A DNA stretch of 64,000 nt from an uncultured Alphaproteobacteria bacterium (GTDB lineage: Bacteria; Pseudomonadota; Alphaproteobacteria; UBA11222), in NCBI GenBank assembly GCA_947258435.1, contig CAMYID010000011.1, positions 10,833 through 74,832 of the forward strand, read 5' to 3'. This document shows, piece after piece, positions 9,278 to 61,634 of this stretch (the first letter of the stretch is position 1; each line of letters starts with the position of its first letter). The notes under the pieces were generated by a model. That model ran no database searches and was not told the DNA's origin. It was given only the letters and a program-made list of their open reading frames with translations. A program made the position numbers and the translations under genes.

Positions 9278-9988
9278 CTACGGATCTTCCACCTTTATGA
9301 CGCCATCCGCATCGGGCCCGTTGACGATCCGCGCCTTGCCGTCGCAATCGGGCGCCGCCAACGCACGGACGACAAATTGCGTTACATTCCGCAGATAATG
9401 TTCCTTATCTTCCTGACTGCCATTGACCGGCATGGTGACCACGCTTGTGATCATCAGGATGACGCGCCCGATAATTTCCGGATCATAATCAGCCCAGGCC
9501 ATGCCGCTGCGCTGCGCATTACGGACTGCGACCGCCCAGGCCTTTGCCCATTCGTCGACAATCGATTCCGAGGAACCGCCATCTTCGCGGCTCATCAGCT
9601 GATGCCCCGCCCAGGCGGCGCGCAAAACACCGGGATTGGATTCGGAATATTCCATTGCGACTTTCAGCGCCGCGTAAACCCGCTCCGCACCATTGCGGCA
9701 TTTCGCAAGTTCAGGCTGCACCAGCGCCTGGATTTCTCCATGGGTCTGCGACACAAATGCCTGAAAACATTCCCGTTTATCTGCAAAATAGAGATAAAAA
9801 GTGCCATAGCCGACCCCTGCCTCGCGGGAGATATCCTGCGGACGGGTTTCATGATAGCCATGTTCGACAAACAGCTTGCGCGCGGCTGTCATCAAGCGTT
9901 CGCGGCTTTCCGCCTTTCGCCGCTCGCGCTTTGACAAGCCGTCTTTCGCCGCTGATTCGACGTGATTTATGTCATTGGTAACAGACAT
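9278..9988 (-). CDS. TetR/AcrR-family transcriptional regulator
   Basis: N-terminal HTH RERLMTAARKLFVEHGYHETRPQDISREAGVGYGTFYLYFADKRECF. AAGGAG RBS upstream of MSVTND. The upstream MTICQ start would swallow the RBS. Confidence 0.8.
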   Translation of the reverse strand: MSVTNDINHVESAAKDGLSKRERRKAESRERLMTAARKLFVEHGYHETRPQDISREAGVGYGTFYLYFADKRECFQAFVSQTHGEIQALVQPELAKCRNGAERVYAALKVAMEYSESNPGVLRAAWAGHQLMSREDGGSSESIVDEWAKAWAVAVRNAQRSGMAWADYDPEIIGRVILMITSVVTMPVNGSQEDKEHYLRNVTQFVVRALAAPDCDGKARIVNGPDADGVIKVEDP

Positions 9989-10023: not shown

Positions 10024-10278
10024 ATAAAATTACGCGCCACGCGCCGCATTTCCCCCAAACGCATCGTCACGACTCATGGGTGAGTATAGTTAGAATTTAT
10101 GGGAATGGCTGCCCGCAATTGGCGCAGGCAGTGGCGCGCCCCTGTTCATTGCACGGTTATCGCACCGGCAAGGGAGCGTGGAAAATCAGCGCAGGTGGGC
10201 AGCAGACCAGATTAACCGTAGACTGATTTTTCGGAGCTTCAGGCCGAATTTCCGGATTGTCCGCCCGGCGGCTGGCAA

Positions 10279-10542: not shown

Positions 10543-12804
10543 TTAGCTGTCAAGCGCGGAGACGATCGCCGGCGGCGACAGCGGCAGATCCGTCATCCGT
10601 TTGCCGATTGCGTGTGACACTGCATTGGCGGTGGCACCAAGTGGCGGCACGATCGGCACCTCGCCCACACCACGCACACCAAACGGATGTGCGGGGTTCG
10701 GCACCTCGACAATGACCGTATCGATCATCGGCAGATCGGATGCGACAGGCATCCGGTAATCGAGGAAGCCCGGATTCTGCAACCGGCCATCTTCGCCATA
10801 GATATACTCTTCATTGAGAGCCCAGCCGACGCCCTGGGCAACACCGCCCTGCATCTGACCTTCCACATAGCCCGGATGAATGGCCTTGCCCGCGTCCTGC
10901 ACCGCAGTGTAGCGCAGCACCGTCACATGGCCGGTATCGGGATCAACCTCCACATCGCAGATATGGGTGCCAAAACCCGCACCTGCACCGCGTGCGTTGA
11001 TCGCGGCCTTGCCATTGATCGGCCCGCCCGTGCGGCCCGCCTTCGCGGCGATATCGGCAAGCGAAAGCGGCTTGAAGTCACCCGCATTGGCGCTGGCCGG
11101 GCGCGCGAAGCCGTCTTCCCAGACGACTGCGTCCACGCCGATATCCCAGGTCATGGCAGCACGTTCACGCAATTGCTGCACAACATCCTCAGCCGCCTGA
11201 ATAATCGCCATGCCGGTCGCAAAAGTCACGCGGCTGCCGCCGGTCACATCGTTGTAGCCGATACTGGCAGTGTCACCGACAATGATCTTGACCTTGTTAT
11301 AATCGACACCCAGCACTTCGGCCGCCATCATGGCCAGCGAGGCTCGCGAACCGCCAATATCGGGATTGCCGGAGATCACACAGACCGTGCCGTCTTCCGC
11401 CACATTGACCGTCGCGCTCGACTGCATGCCGATATTGAACCAGAAGCCCGAGGCCACACCGCGCCCCTGATTGGGACCAAGCGGGATATTATAGTTCGGA
11501 TGCGCCTTTGCGGCCTCCAGCGTTTCGATATAGCCGATGCTCTTGAACTTCGGCCCATAGGGGGCCTGGGTCCCTTCTTTTGCGGCGTTTTTGAGCCGCA
11601 GATCGATCGGATCCATCCCCAGCTCCTGCGCCAGCTCGTCAATCGCGCTTTCAACCGCAAATGACGCCATGGGCGCACCCGGCGCCCGGTAAGACGCACT
11701 GAGGGGCCGGTTGACGACCACATCGTAGCCGACCGTCTTGACATTCTCGAGCGCATAGGGCGCAAAAGCCGTCATGCAGCCCGGCGCCACCGGCGAACCG
11801 GGATAGGCACCTGCCTGATATTTCAGCTCCGCCTCGGCACCCTGGATCTTGCCATCCCTGGTCGCACCGATTTTGACACGCATGGCTGTCCCCGAGGTCG
11901 GGCCGGTTGCCCGGAATACTTCGTCGCGCGACATGACCATCCGCACCGGACGGTGGGACTTGCGCGACAGGAGTGCGGCAACAGGTTCAAGATAGATCGT
12001 GGTCTTGCCCCCAAAACCACCGCCGATTTCCGCCGGGGTGACACGCACCTGCGCCAGCTCCAGATCGAGCAGCTTGGCTGTGAAGGTCCGGACCATGAAC
12101 TGGCCCTGGCTGGAACACCAGATGCGGCATTCGTCGTTTTCGGTCCATTCGACAACCGCCGCATGCGGCTCGATATAGCCCTGATGAACCGGTTGTGTCG
12201 TATAGTTACGCTCGATCACTACGTCGGACTTTTCATAGCCCGCATCCGGGTCACCGAAACCCATCTGCACCCGCATCACCACATTGGACGGCTTTTCCGG
12301 CTTCGGCTCGACGCCGGCGGTAAAAATCGTATCGTGCAGAACCGGCGCATCGGGTTTCATCGATTCTTCCACGTCGATCACATGTGGCAGAACCTCATAC
12401 TCTACCTCGATCAGGCTCAGCGCCTCATTGGCAACCGCATCGCTGATCGCAGCGACAGCGGCGACCGGATGCCCGTCATACAACACCTTGTCATGTGCCA
12501 TGATATTGTTGGACAGATAGCGGAAATTAACCGCACCTTCACCGGCCTGCGCCATCTCGGACGGCATTTCAGGCATATCCGCACCGGTAACGATCGCCTT
12601 CACGCCCGGCAGCGCGGCCGCCTTGTCCGTGTTGATCGAGACGATTTTTGCATGCGGGTGCGGGCTGCGGAGAATTTTTCCCGTCAGCATCCCGGGCAAG
12701 TTCAGGTCCGCACCGAAATTGGCGCGGCCGGTAACCTTGTCGACCCCATCGGGACGGATCTGACGGGTGCCGACCCACTTCAGTTCTTTATCTTCATATC
12801 CCAT
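10543..12804 (-). CDS. Xanthine-dehydrogenase-family molybdopterin-binding large subunit (CoxL-like), not a true CO dehydrogenase
   Basis: 753 aa. Aldehyde oxidase / XDH Mo-binding blocks are present. The active-site loop reads SYRAPG rather than the AYRCSFR of form-I CODH. Confidence 0.8.
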   Translation of the reverse strand: MGYEDKELKWVGTRQIRPDGVDKVTGRANFGADLNLPGMLTGKILRSPHPHAKIVSINTDKAAALPGVKAIVTGADMPEMPSEMAQAGEGAVNFRYLSNNIMAHDKVLYDGHPVAAVAAISDAVANEALSLIEVEYEVLPHVIDVEESMKPDAPVLHDTIFTAGVEPKPEKPSNVVMRVQMGFGDPDAGYEKSDVVIERNYTTQPVHQGYIEPHAAVVEWTENDECRIWCSSQGQFMVRTFTAKLLDLELAQVRVTPAEIGGGFGGKTTIYLEPVAALLSRKSHRPVRMVMSRDEVFRATGPTSGTAMRVKIGATRDGKIQGAEAELKYQAGAYPGSPVAPGCMTAFAPYALENVKTVGYDVVVNRPLSASYRAPGAPMASFAVESAIDELAQELGMDPIDLRLKNAAKEGTQAPYGPKFKSIGYIETLEAAKAHPNYNIPLGPNQGRGVASGFWFNIGMQSSATVNVAEDGTVCVISGNPDIGGSRASLAMMAAEVLGVDYNKVKIIVGDTASIGYNDVTGGSRVTFATGMAIIQAAEDVVQQLRERAAMTWDIGVDAVVWEDGFARPASANAGDFKPLSLADIAAKAGRTGGPINGKAAINARGAGAGFGTHICDVEVDPDTGHVTVLRYTAVQDAGKAIHPGYVEGQMQGGVAQGVGWALNEEYIYGEDGRLQNPGFLDYRMPVASDLPMIDTVIVEVPNPAHPFGVRGVGEVPIVPPLGATANAVSHAIGKRMTDLPLSPPAIVSALDS

Positions 12805-12805
12805 T

Positions 12806-13282
12806 TTACGATCCTCTCATTTCTGCGGCGACGTCGAGCACCGAACGAATGATCTTGTCATAGCCTGTGCAGCGGCACAGATTGCCCGCAAGCCAGTAAC
12901 GGACTTCGGTTTCCGTCGGATCCGGATTGCGCTCAAGCAGGTTTTTCGCGGCGACCAGAAAGCCTGGAGTGCAGAAGCCGCACTGCAATGCCGCCTCCTC
13001 CAGGAATTTTTGCTGTAGCGGATGCAGCTCATCACCTTCGGCCATACCTTCGATCGTCTCGATCTTCGCGCCGTCCAGTTCAGCACCCAGCGCCAGGCAG
13101 GAACAAACAAGCCGGCCATCAAGGATCACGCTGCACGCCCCGCAGTCACCCGAAGAGCAACCTTCCTTTGTACCCGTCAGGTTCAGCTCATCGCGCAATA
13201 CATCCAGCATAGTCTGTTGCGGGTCGCAAAGATATTCGACCTCTTCACCATTGACTGTCGCAGTTACATGAAATTTAGCCAT
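12806..13282 (-). CDS. (2Fe-2S)-binding small subunit (CoxS-like)
   Basis: CSSGDCGACS and CGFCTPG ... CRCTGY cysteine motifs. Confidence 0.85.
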   Translation of the reverse strand: MAKFHVTATVNGEEVEYLCDPQQTMLDVLRDELNLTGTKEGCSSGDCGACSVILDGRLVCSCLALGAELDGAKIETIEGMAEGDELHPLQQKFLEEAALQCGFCTPGFLVAAKNLLERNPDPTETEVRYWLAGNLCRCTGYDKIIRSVLDVAAEMRGS

Positions 13283-14154
13283 TAGTTACTCCCTGCCCGC
13301 TCAAGCGCAATTTTTGCCGCACGCTGGGCAAGCACCCCGGCGACCTTTTTGCGATATTCAATTGTGCCGCGTTTATCATCAATCGGATTGCACGCGGCGC
13401 TGGCCGCAGCAGCCAGTTTTGTCAGCGCGGCCTCATCAACCTTCGTCCCGACCAGCGCAGCACCGGCATCCTTGACAAGCAGCACGGTCGGCGCAACCGC
13501 CCCCAACGCCACCCGCGCGGCCGTGCAGACGCCCTGATCGTCAAGTGTCAGGTTGACCCCCGCACCAACGATCGCGATATCCATTTCCGTCCGCGGGATC
13601 ATGCGCAAATAGGCATCGCCGGAATGCGCCGGGCGCGGCGGCAGCTTGATCGCCACGACGAATTCACCCTTCGCCAGCGAGGTTTTCCCCGGAGCCGTCG
13701 GAATTTCTTCTACCGGCACTTCGCGGCGGCCATTTGGCCCGGCCACGATACAAACGGCGCCAGCGGCCACAATGCCGGGCACGCTATCGGCGGCAGGCGA
13801 GGCATTGCAAAGATTGCCCCCCAATGACGCGCGTCCCTGTACCTGCGTCGAACCGATCAGATCCATCGCCTCGACCACACCGGGCCATGTTTTGTGCAGG
13901 GCGTCATTTTCGCTGATCGCCTGTCCGCATACCGCAGCGCCGATCAGAAAGCTGCCATCGCTTTCCTGCCTGATAGTATTCAGTTCGTCGATACGCTTGA
14001 TATCGACAACCAGGTCCGGTTTGACGATGCCGGCACGCAACTGCACCAGTAAATCGGTTCCCCCCGCCAGCACGCGGACATTGCCGGCGGCATTCGCCAG
14101 CACACCCACCGCCTCGTCGACCGACGCCGGAGCTTCAAATTGAAATCCGCTCAT
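13282..14154 (-). CDS. FAD-binding subunit of a molybdenum hydroxylase (CoxM-like)
   Basis: Start at MSGFQFEAPASVDEAV. Contains VLAGGTDL FAD-binding motif. Gene order M-S-L with 1-nt start/stop overlaps. Confidence 0.75.
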   Translation of the reverse strand: MSGFQFEAPASVDEAVGVLANAAGNVRVLAGGTDLLVQLRAGIVKPDLVVDIKRIDELNTIRQESDGSFLIGAAVCGQAISENDALHKTWPGVVEAMDLIGSTQVQGRASLGGNLCNASPAADSVPGIVAAGAVCIVAGPNGRREVPVEEIPTAPGKTSLAKGEFVVAIKLPPRPAHSGDAYLRMIPRTEMDIAIVGAGVNLTLDDQGVCTAARVALGAVAPTVLLVKDAGAALVGTKVDEAALTKLAAAASAACNPIDDKRGTIEYRKKVAGVLAQRAAKIALERAGSN

Positions 14155-14345
14155 CTTACTCCCTTGCTCTTCCTCTCGCCGGGCCAGGTTCGGCATGCAT
14201 CGGGTTAACTCAACTGTCCCCGCAACGCGCCTCCTGATGCCGCCATCAGATTATTATTTGCAGACGTGAATTTCCGCATGGCCTGACCAGCCTGCACGAA
14301 TCCACGCATACTTTGATCAATAACTTATCAGAGATTTGCACTTAA

Positions 14346-14396
14346 CGATAACCGTAATAGGACGACGATAACCGTAATTTCCGACGATACCGTAAT
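14346..14396. repeat. Three direct repeats of CGATAACCGTAAT spaced about 19-20 bp apart, in the promoter region of the hydroxylase operon
   Basis: aaCGATAACCGTAATagg acgaCGATAACCGTAATttc cgaCGATACCGTAATggg, read directly from sequence. Confidence 0.6.
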
Positions 14397-14569
14397 GGGC
14401 AGACAGCCGTCGCAGGTATCCCCTTGCCCCTATTTCACTCCGTCAAGCCCAGCCTCGGATCCGAGTATGACGGAAACCGGCGCTGCTGTTCAAGCGCCGA
14501 TACGCCGTTGGCGGTCCGCAAAACAAAGATACAATAAAGATCAGGCACGAATCTGCCGAACATTGACCG

Positions 14570-14613
14570 CCGCTCAATGGGCGCTCAATGGCCGCACAAT
14601 AGGCGCACAATGC
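14570..14613. repeat. Four tandem 11-bp repeats, consensus GCGCWCAATRG
   Basis: ccgctcaatgg gcgctcaatgg ccgcacaatag gcgcacaatgc. Sits in the divergent intergenic region between the NUDIX gene and the hydroxylase operon. Confidence 0.6.
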
Positions 14614-14691
14614 AGACCATCGGGCACGGACACTGGACATCGCCACTGCAACCGGTGCAATCTGCGGCACGCGGGGAGGACGAGAACACAA

Positions 14692-15423
14692 ATGTTACAA
14701 CAAAAAAGCGATAAGCTATTACAACAAAAGAGCGAAAAGCCGCGCCGGGCCGTACGCCCCAAGGATGCGGCGACGCTTATCATCGTAAGGCGCGACCGGT
14801 CGGTACCGGAAATCCTCATGGGACGGCGCAGTGACGGCCATGACTTTCTGCCAAACAAGTTTGTTTTTCCAGGCGGGCGCGTGGACCGTGGCGACAATAT
14901 GGTGAAGCCCCACAGCGGCCTGCGCCCGGAAGTCGAAGCGCGCCTTGTCAGGGGATGCAATTCGACGAAGGCACGGGCGCTCGGTATGGCGGCGGTGCGC
15001 GAAACCTTCGAGGAAACAGGCCTTATCGTCGGGCGGCATATCGGCCGACCAATGGCAACACGTTCAGCCGTCTGGTCGACCTTTTCCCAAAGCGGGGTCG
15101 CGCCGGCACTGGATATAATGAACTATATCGGCCGCGCCATTACCCCGCCTTTCCGGCATAAACGATTTGATGCGCGCTTCTTTATGACAGACGCCGAACA
15201 TATCGCCGGCGATCTGCATGATATCTCTGATGCCTCGGGCGAGTTGCTGGAAATCCACTGGCTGCCTGTCAGCGAAGCAAAGCTGCTCGAATTACAGGGG
15301 ATTACCCTGCTGATGCTCGACGAGGTCGAGCGGCGGCTCAACGTGACTGAAAGAAAAGCGTCCGAGCTTCCCGTTCCTTTCTATTATTTCAGGCACGGCA
15401 AGCGTATCGCCGAGGCGCATTAA
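14692..15423 (+). CDS. NUDIX hydrolase
   Basis: NUDIX box GGRVDRGDNMVKPHSGLRPEVEARLVRGCNSTKARALGMAAVRETFEETGL (GX5EX7REUXEEXGU). Start taken at MLQQKS; the longer upstream ORF is low-complexity. Confidence 0.7.
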   Translation: MLQQKSDKLLQQKSEKPRRAVRPKDAATLIIVRRDRSVPEILMGRRSDGHDFLPNKFVFPGGRVDRGDNMVKPHSGLRPEVEARLVRGCNSTKARALGMAAVRETFEETGLIVGRHIGRPMATRSAVWSTFSQSGVAPALDIMNYIGRAITPPFRHKRFDARFFMTDAEHIAGDLHDISDASGELLEIHWLPVSEAKLLELQGITLLMLDEVERRLNVTERKASELPVPFYYFRHGKRIAEAH

Positions 15424-15467
15424 TGTTGCCACAGGGCAATTGAAATGTTGCCAGGGGGCAATTGAAT
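15423..15467. repeat. Two tandem 22-bp direct repeats, each containing the inverted repeat TTGCC-N4-GGCAA
   Basis: atgttgccacagggcaattgaa / atgttgccagggggcaattgaat, immediately after the NUDIX stop codon and about 190 bp upstream of rpmG. Confidence 0.5.
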
Positions 15468-15585
15468 TTGTGACGCAGCCACAGCCAGATCGCCAAGGAT
15501 AACCCGCAGAAGCGCACGCCAGATGCAGCGGCAGGGGGCGGTGACGTAAAATGCCGGCCCGTTACTGCAGAAAGGCGAAGTTTAC

Positions 15586-18415: not shown

Positions 18416-19126
18416 ATGCCAAAGACATTCAGCCCCAAAGACATCCAGCCTGTGCTGACAGGCGACATACGCGCGCAATTGGAAGCGCTGCCCCTGCAGG
18501 CTGACAGACCCCTCATCGTTACCGATGCGGATGAAGTCATTGCCCAGTTCATCGCGGGCCTTGAAATTTTCCTCACACGCAACGGGTTTTGGCTCGATCT
18601 GCAGAGTTTTGCGATTTCGGGCAATGTAAAGCGGGCCGATGATCATTCGGTGGTCGAACGCGCGGAAGTGCAGGAACTGCTGGCGCACTTCTTTGCTACC
18701 GACACGGAAAACCTGTTGCCCGTGCCGGGCGCGGCCGACGCGCTTGCCGCACTCAGCACACGAACCCAGATCATCGTGCTGAGCAATGTGCCGCAACCCC
18801 AGCGTGCCGCCCGCCAGCGCTGGCTGCGCCAGCATGGTATGGACTATCCGCTGATCGCCAATAGCGGCCCGAAGGGAGCCGCCGTACAGCATTTGCGCAG
18901 CAAAATCGCGGCGCCGGTTTTCTTTCTCGATGATTTGCCGCCAAATCTCACGTCAGTCTCCGAACTGGTCGATGATGCGCATCTGCTGCACTTTATCGCC
19001 GATAGCCGGCTGGCGGCGCTGATAGGCCCCGCGCCCGGTTGCCATTTGCATACAACGAACTGGGATGAGGCCCATGACTATATTGCAAAGGCGCTCGATA
19101 TGGCGGGGTTTGCAGCGGCCGGCTAG
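18416..19126 (+). CDS. Hypothetical protein, HAD-hydrolase-like fold suspected
   Basis: Start MPKTFSPKD (an alternative upstream start exists at 18359). Contains DxD-like LIVTDADEV near the N-terminus. Weak assignment. Confidence 0.3.
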   Translation: MPKTFSPKDIQPVLTGDIRAQLEALPLQADRPLIVTDADEVIAQFIAGLEIFLTRNGFWLDLQSFAISGNVKRADDHSVVERAEVQELLAHFFATDTENLLPVPGAADALAALSTRTQIIVLSNVPQPQRAARQRWLRQHGMDYPLIANSGPKGAAVQHLRSKIAAPVFFLDDLPPNLTSVSELVDDAHLLHFIADSRLAALIGPAPGCHLHTTNWDEAHDYIAKALDMAGFAAAG

Positions 19127-61590: not shown

Positions 61591-61634
61591 GCGCAACGCG
61601 GTGGCAACACGCTGGCAACGCGATGGCAACGCGG
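61591..61634. repeat. Four tandem 11-bp repeats TGGCAACGCGN in the tatA upstream region
   Basis: gcgcaacgcgg tggcaacacgc tggcaacgcga tggcaacgcgg, read directly from sequence. Confidence 0.6.

Follow-up and report, generated by a model that had tools for sequence, protein, structure and literature searches.

Several described systems come close to the repeats found between divergently transcribed genes in the DNA considered here. Operators of dimeric helix-turn-helix repressors (TetR, MarR and GntR type) are palindromes that lie upstream of catabolic-type operons, and they stand out as discrete conserved footprints between diverged flanks; a TetR-family operator is expected to be an inverted repeat of about 12-30 bp. 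Rho-independent terminators have a hairpin with a stable GC-rich stem, located 3' of a co-oriented gene and followed by a T-rich tract. Direct-repeat arrays, such as response-regulator or AraC-type boxes and plasmid iterons, carry motif copies in one orientation about two helical turns apart, and a cooperative array should show a fixed centre-to-centre spacing and stronger constraint on the motif than on the spacers. Finally, bacterial VNTRs (slipped-strand minisatellites as in MLVA, and contingency-locus promoter repeats) are spacer-free, head-to-tail units whose copy number differs between close relatives.

The 537-bp divergent intergenic region analysed here (14155-14691 of the window, which is the entire 64-kb stretch of DNA that was studied) has points in common with all of these systems. 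An initial annotation had drawn attention to a palindrome, a set of direct repeats and a set of tandem 11-mers, and had treated them together as periodic regulatory arrays. Comparison with related lineages leads to a simpler view, in which the region is an ordinary divergent regulatory spacer whose repeats have recently expanded, rather than an operator array designed to be periodic. The spacer appears to carry at least two conserved candidate binding elements and one conserved block that is unexplained. The explanation that we favour, and that we consider fairly probable as a whole, is that the region would serve as a divergent promoter and leader common to a molybdenum-hydroxylase operon and a NUDIX-rpmG unit, with the palindrome as an operator, a 14-nt motif as a cis-element, 11-mers made by slippage, and a neighbouring TetR that is not the likely regulator. 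The initial annotation had itself named the absence of the repeats from the orthologous regions of relatives as the finding that would count against it: the palindrome came through that comparison, the direct repeat came through by half, and the 11-mer array did not.

The spacer, its flanking genes and its relatives

The genes first proposed to flank the region are borne out. On the minus strand lies the molybdenum-hydroxylase operon, which encodes an enzyme of the xanthine-dehydrogenase family in the order FAD subunit (13282-14154; Pfam FAD_binding_5 and CO_deh_flav_C), 2Fe-2S subunit (12806-13282), molybdopterin subunit (10543-12804) and then a ThiS-like protein; no NCBIfam equivalog scored above its cut-off for this operon. 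On the plus strand, a gene for a 243-aa NUDIX protein is followed by rpmG, with pleD and divK next on the opposite strand, a neighbourhood that identifies the DNA as alphaproteobacterial. None of the small ORFs within the region is kept across lineages.

The NUDIX start codon deserves some comment. The ATG at 14692 (plus strand; 14674-14694 with its Shine-Dalgarno sequence, GGGGAGG) is taken as the correct start because the closest homologues are 241-247 aa long. Nearly all of the 120 best homologues listed measure 230-260 aa, and a 342-aa ORF that opens at 14395 (14395-15423) was therefore rejected as a spurious NUDIX extension; its frame is stopped or shifted in relatives. This ORF reaches 99 codons upstream through the repeats and would mislead a simple longest-ORF gene caller, and P0004, a homologue in the database whose called length of 294 aa exceeds that of the others by about 50 residues, may be over-extended in a similar way. 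The closest named homologues come from Parvibaculaceae and Rhodobiaceae MAGs at 56% identity. A role as an NrtR-type regulator was also rejected, the sole structural relative being a plain NUDIX hydrolase (3qsj). The gene contains a 24-bp in-frame tandem duplication over codons 2-17 (14695-14740; LQQKSDKL/LQQKSEKP), which is shared by the window and L081, missing in L179 (with a 235-aa NUDIX protein) and different in L001.

The order of hydroxylase operon, spacer and NUDIX gene is common to four other lineages: L081-83 (Logan contigs, NUDIX 92% identical), L179/L183 (FAD subunit 96% identical), L001 with L168-177 (MAGs, NUDIX 87% identical), and L173, a divergent lineage. Four-fold sites provide the neutral yardstick. 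The window differs from L081 or L179 at 0.19-0.23 of these sites, the three being nearly equidistant, and from L001 at 0.42-0.48. Given a neutral divergence of 0.19-0.48, stretches of 21 or 64 nt with almost no variation must be constrained.

The spacer was initially described as long, and for the window this holds: a crude gene call gives only about two other gaps of at least 500 bp in 64 kb. Its length in relatives is 440-455 bp versus 537 bp here, and 81 bp of the present spacer come from three insertions. NUDIX homologues at 68-72% identity have different upstream genes and short spacers, so that the long spacer belongs to a small clade. When the region and its conserved blocks were compared with some 180 fetched loci and with the remainder of the window (blastn, nhmmer), nothing was found outside the close clade, apart from one weak match in L178 that is described below. 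There was no match among 72,556 plasmids (blastn), and a metagenome (JGI) scan with the FAD subunit returned only orthologues of at most 74% identity, none with either motif. The four-gene operon itself (FAD, 2Fe-2S, Mo and ThiS-like) is widespread in metagenomes, at 59-74% identity. Among the loci L088-L167, one subgroup (for example L130, L136, L139, L145 and L161-163) has an upstream GGCTGTTCCAA-N13-CGTGTAG motif, and another (L096, L098, L109, L114 and L121) has, some 85 nt before the FAD-subunit gene, CGATCGCATAACC; these motifs may be promoters or regulator sites.

The palindrome upstream of the hydroxylase operon

The palindrome CTGATG-CCGC-CATCAG is present at 14234-14249, as first noted, and forms part of a 21-nt footprint, TCCTGATGCCGCCATCAGATT (14232-14252, no strand assigned), whose centre is 87 nt from the start codon of the hydroxylase operon, on its upstream side. 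TCCTGATGCCGCCATCAGATT is a strictly conserved element, invariant in five lineages, and the alignments show both of its sides to be strongly diverged, most of all in L001 and L173. Within it, CTGATGCCGCCATCAG is a perfect 6-4-6 palindrome and falls in the size range of TetR-family inverted repeats. The significance of the palindrome comes from conservation only, because a 6-bp inverted repeat by itself is unremarkable by chance: for a sequence of 537 bp, chance predicts about 1.4 perfect inverted repeats of 6 bp with a loop of 0-10, compared to five observed, a number that 3.4% of shuffles reach. The five lineages on which the case is built include three that are close and nearly equidistant.

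Because the palindrome and the 14-nt motif (see below) are conserved far beyond the neutral expectation, both are plausible protein-binding sites. The palindrome probably binds a protein, and the footprint would most likely be an operator through which a dimeric transcription factor regulates the hydroxylase operon. Its likeness to the operators of dimeric repressors lies in the perfect 16-bp palindrome upstream of a catabolic-type operon and in the discrete conserved footprint with diverged flanks. It is unlike them in that no cognate regulator was found, the sole nearby regulator gene being tetR, 4.2 kb off and separately transcribed.

Could the palindrome act as RNA instead? In one version it would be a weak intrinsic terminator, ending a short antisense plus-strand transcript with its start over the hydroxylase gene's 5' end; in another it would form a hairpin in the 5' leader of the hydroxylase mRNA, beside GGAGG. 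An A/T-rich tract, ATTATTATTT (14250-14259, plus strand), does follow the palindrome, and hairpin and tract together give a weak terminator-like score on the plus strand of the window, L081 and L001. The sequence of the tail changes among these relatives and its T-richness stays, which is the main likeness to Rho-independent terminators, and on the minus strand the hairpin directly adjoins AGGAGG. The hairpin is weak, however, with 6 pairs (3 GC), energies of -6.4 and -7.9 kcal/mol and z-scores of -1.05 and -0.65. Moreover, there is no plus-strand gene upstream of the palindrome; a terminator, by contrast, has a stable GC-rich stem, not a short one, and lies 3' of a co-oriented gene. There is no covariation to test, and a short minus-strand ORF after AGGAGG, which might encode an upstream peptide, is not conserved. 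A protein site fits better than a hairpin because the loop and flanking bases are as invariant as the stem, again unlike a terminator. A small hairpin is therefore graded less probable, and we regard an RNA role as unlikely and rate it below protein binding.

The 14-nt motif and the conserved block

The three direct repeats were confirmed on the plus strand at 14345-14396. Copy 1 (14345-14358) and copy 2 (14365-14378) of ACGATAACCGTAAT are identical at 14/14 positions, and copy 3 (14384-14396), ACGATA-CCGTAAT, has lost one A through a 1-nt deletion; copies 2 and 3 share a 16-mer bar the one deleted base. At least one good copy of the motif occurs in every lineage, and copy 2 lies inside a 38-nt insertion relative to L081. 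A decayed relic copy, CAGACAGCCGTCGC (7/14), is found at 14400-14413, and in the multi-lineage alignments, which are ambiguous here, it aligns with the second good copy of L001 and L173 (12/14) and with a 9/14 relic in L081.

The repeats had been described as lying in a two-helical-turn register, and it is this register that is not conserved, since the four relatives L081, L179, L001 and L173 have 1, 1, 2 and 2 good copies (L081 and L179 each with a decayed relic as well) and a 17-bp spacing in L001 and L173, where there are two. The window, with start-to-start spacings of 20 and 19 bp, has three good copies, which is the most. The motif is another matter. Spacers of 3-6 nt between the copies (AGGACG, TTCCG and GGGCAG) differ at almost every position, whereas the motif is the more strongly constrained part among the window copies and is present in all lineages. 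This contrast between spacer and motif argues against a recent simple duplication with neutral decay, and suggests that the motif itself is constrained or that the array arose in a more complex way. Because the alignment across the direct repeats is ambiguous, the direction of copy gain or loss is unsettled; an expansion on the terminal branch would be difficult to reconcile with spacers that have diverged completely.

On the strength of these alignments, ACGATAACCGTAAT is best regarded as a conserved cis-element under sequence constraint, with a labile copy number and spacing. Its copy number would shift over evolution by unit gain and loss, between one and three good copies at a spacing of 17-20 bp, and the copies probably bind one common putative factor without exact helical phasing. 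With a 14-nt motif in one orientation, repeated at about two helical turns and better conserved than its spacers, the set resembles response-regulator or AraC-type boxes and plasmid iterons. It differs from them in that copy number (1-3) and spacing (17, 19 and 20 bp) vary among close relatives, so that the fixed centre-to-centre spacing of a cooperative array is absent, and in that none of the adjacent genes encodes a replication initiator, a response-regulator DNA-binding protein or an AraC-type protein. The neighbours of the region encode the hydroxylase subunits, the ThiS-like protein, TetR, NUDIX, L33, PleD and DivK, and no candidate for a DNA-binding protein cognate to the direct repeat was found among these genes.

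Two short islands of invariant alignment columns, neither assigned to a strand, lie on the hydroxylase side of the repeats: CGAATCCA, with a GANTC site, at 14297-14304, and AACTTATCAGAGA at 14322-14334, just upstream of copy 1. The most conserved block of the region, which the initial annotation did not flag, is on the other side. It comprises 64 nt (14440-14503, no strand assigned) with about 6 variable columns in the multi-lineage alignment, and it contains the nested inverted repeats TCCGTCA...TGACGGA, CTCGGATCCGAG and GGCGCT...AGCGCC. Across the five lineages, whose neutral sites differ by 0.19-0.48, the block is more conserved than the flanking coding DNA.

Candidate promoters can be placed in the conserved segments with low confidence. 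On the minus strand, TTGAAC-18-CATACT (14464-14493) might be the hydroxylase promoter; it matches at 8/12 positions, under the 9/12 threshold of the scan tool. Both hexamers are invariant, and most substitutions of the 64-nt block fall in the spacer between them. On the plus strand, TGGACA-16-TGCAAT (14634-14661) is a comparable candidate for the NUDIX promoter, with invariant hexamers and a varying spacer, and with a TGCAAT hexamer that has no A at position 2. Both candidates were read by eye and are below or outside the criteria of the scan tool. The NUDIX-proximal invariant block (14629-14679 in the multi-lineage alignment) has a weak nhmmer match upstream of the NUDIX gene in L178 (E 0.031). 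The only sigma-70 site that the scan returned in the region (14508-14535) was rejected: it lies in an unconserved segment, and none was found in L081 or L001. Inspection of the region by eye revealed no convincing sigma-54, EcfG, FixK, CtrA, Fur or IHF-like match.

A bolder reading, and one that we think decidedly unlikely, is that the region may hold two clade-specific regulatory elements. One would be the 64-nt block, as a new structured RNA or a composite promoter-operator, and the other the 14-nt site, turning over by tandem gain and loss and re-amplified to three copies after the decay of an older copy (the relic at 14400-14413). If true, this would be a case of bacterial binding-site turnover by local duplication, tuning the Mo-hydroxylase or the NUDIX promoter.

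It is also improbable that the long spacer exists for a small RNA or cis-regulatory RNA centred on 14440-14503, with the repeats as bystanders. The block is the most conserved sequence of the region and folds into two hairpins, with z-scores of -2.5 (plus strand) and -2.8 (minus strand). However, its loops are as conserved as its stems, there are no compensatory changes, and the single stem substitution breaks a pair. No terminator follows the block on either strand, and no homologue of the block was found outside the clade. Searching the region against Rfam 15 gave no match at the gathering threshold, and with E up to 10 only two chance-level eukaryotic matches appeared.

Tandem 11-mers, spacer growth and the TetR question

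The four 11-mers were also found as described, on the plus strand at 14570-14613, where CCGCTCAATGG, GCGCTCAATGG, CCGCACAATAG and GCGCACAATGC (consensus SCGCWCAATRG) follow one another head-to-tail; TRF reports a period of 11, 3.8 copies, no indels and 83% matches. Of these units, relatives have a counterpart by descent to the last (14603-14613) only. One unit each is present in L081-83, L179, L001, L168 and L173 versus four in the window, and the three extra units amount to a 33-nt insertion relative to L081, beginning at 14571. In L081 the single unit is TATACAATGCG, which makes a small inverted repeat together with the CATTG before it. Within the L001 lineage, nine of ten contigs are separated from L001 by a few substitutions only and match it in repeat copy number (2 for the direct repeat and 1 for the 11-mer); the tenth is the divergent L173. 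For the window genome, no sequence from a conspecific was found.

The 11-mer array looks like a slipped-strand expansion and, among the lineages aligned, is private to this genome. A single ancestral 11-mer would have been expanded without conserved function. The -35 element of the candidate NUDIX promoter follows 21 nt downstream of the array, which may alter promoter geometry in this strain. Like bacterial VNTRs, it consists of spacer-free, head-to-tail intergenic units, four here versus one in close relatives, and lineage-specific duplications of 16-38 bp occur in neighbouring spacers. It is unlike them in that its units have already diverged, to the 83% matches given above, and in that it has no link to a phase-variable surface gene.

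Are such arrays exceptional in this genome? The TRF scores are 71 for the direct repeat and 56/67 for the 11-mer array, and the window has 8 TRF rows scoring at least 56, compared to a mean of 0.25 in 40 dinucleotide shuffles. A global alignment with L081 over 11.4 kb (91% identity) contains only 8 indels of at least 4 bp, 6 of which are insertions in the window. Intergenic tandem duplications make up four of these six (+38 at 14351, +33 at 14571, +22 at 15433 and +16 at 18419), and among the five insertions of at least 10 bp other than the 11-mer array, three are slippage-like. Tandem duplication appears to be the usual way in which spacers grow in this genome, which would account for the clustering of the top four TRF arrays of the window at 14345-15466. 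For the most part, the periodicity of the region seems to be due to slippage that added units; this accounts for all of it in the 11-mers and for some of it in the 14-nt motif.

Other duplications of this kind were seen along the way. A 22-bp tandem repeat in two copies, AATGTTGCCACAGGGCAATTGA, lies over the NUDIX stop codon, and a 90-bp insertion is found at 15481 (15422-15570 for the two); both are in the NUDIX-rpmG spacer and both are missing in L081. A 16-bp tandem duplication in two copies, CCAAAGACATCCAGCC (18419-18450), is likewise missing in L081 and apparently falls in the spacer after a DUF3572 gene, its position being judged from the offset to genes called in L081. At 61593-61633 there is a further tandem array with an 11-bp unit, GCAACGCGATG, with 3.7 copies and a TRF score of 61.

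On the reading of the initial annotation, here taken with the cluster TetR as the prime candidate and with joint control of the divergent genes, all three features would have evolved as arrays in helical phase, to which a regulator binds cooperatively. The repeats are indeed real and beyond chance, their periods of 20 and 11 bp are near two or one helical turns, and the direct-repeat copies are more conserved than their spacers. In addition, an exact copy of the 10-mer CGATAACCGT, the core of the direct-repeat motif, is found upstream of tetR at 10153-10162 (minus strand). Nevertheless, the 11-mer array is missing in all four related lineages, and the direct repeat has elsewhere only one or two copies, at the 17-bp spacing already described. 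The 10-mer near tetR was rejected as a shared site, being mutated in both L183 (CGAGAGCCGT) and L001, and is for that reason probably a chance match. With this unconserved 10-mer excepted, neither array motif recurs above chance in the 64-kb window.

The TetR part of the proposal can be judged from the organization of the tetR locus. The gene (9278-9988, minus strand) is 4.2 kb from the region, downstream of the ThiS-like gene and separated from it by a gap of about 290 bp. A terminator-like hairpin (10049-10032, minus strand) lies at the end of this gap, followed by a 10/12 sigma-70-like site, TTGACA-17-GAGAAT (10024-9996, minus strand), that ends 7 nt before the tetR ATG; with the promoter-like site so close, the tetR transcript may be leaderless. 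In L183, two uncharacterised genes and an SDR gene begin 24 nt after tetR. Because tetR has its own promoter-like site, a preceding terminator-like hairpin and further genes directly after it, it heads the next operon.

The sites at the tetR promoter are also of a different kind. Two conserved palindromes, TGACAATATGTCA and AACTGACATGTCTGTT, overlap the promoter-like site, and neither has a match in 14155-14691 with up to 2 mismatches; nor does the palindrome at 14234-14249 have a match near tetR with up to 3 mismatches. Moreover, a homologue of this TetR (tblastn, E<1e-8) was found in the fetched flank, up to 6 kb, of 0 of 80 orthologous FAD-FeS-Mo(-ThiS) operons (59-74% identity), and it is solely within the close clade that tetR and the hydroxylase genes occur together. 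Since tetR is transcribed separately, has different palindromes and is not linked to the orthologous operons, the proposal of the cluster TetR as regulator is unsupported, and the neighbouring TetR is likely not the regulator of the hydroxylase operon. We consider the cooperative arrays as a whole very doubtful: what stands of the claim is the divergent regulatory spacer with its conserved palindrome and 14-nt motif, and what falls is the periodic arrays as such.

The opposite extreme, that all three features are functionless, neutral by-products of slippage and chance in an unconstrained spacer, is hardly credible: tandem duplication is indeed the dominant insertion type in the intergenic DNA of this genome, a 6-bp palindrome is expected by chance and the 11-mer array is private to this genome, but the footprint of the palindrome and the 14-nt motif show little or no variation among lineages with a neutral-site divergence of 0.19-0.48, and the contrast between motif and spacer within the window array also speaks against it.

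The wider significance of these results is small. They correct an over-reading, in that an intergenic periodic repeat is not necessarily an operator that evolved for cooperative binding, and they indicate that the neighbouring TetR should not be presumed to be the regulator of the operon. For the FAD-FeS-Mo-ThiS-like hydroxylase operon, which is uncharacterised and widely conserved, the 21-nt footprint, the 14-nt motif and the 64-nt block provide candidate cis-elements.
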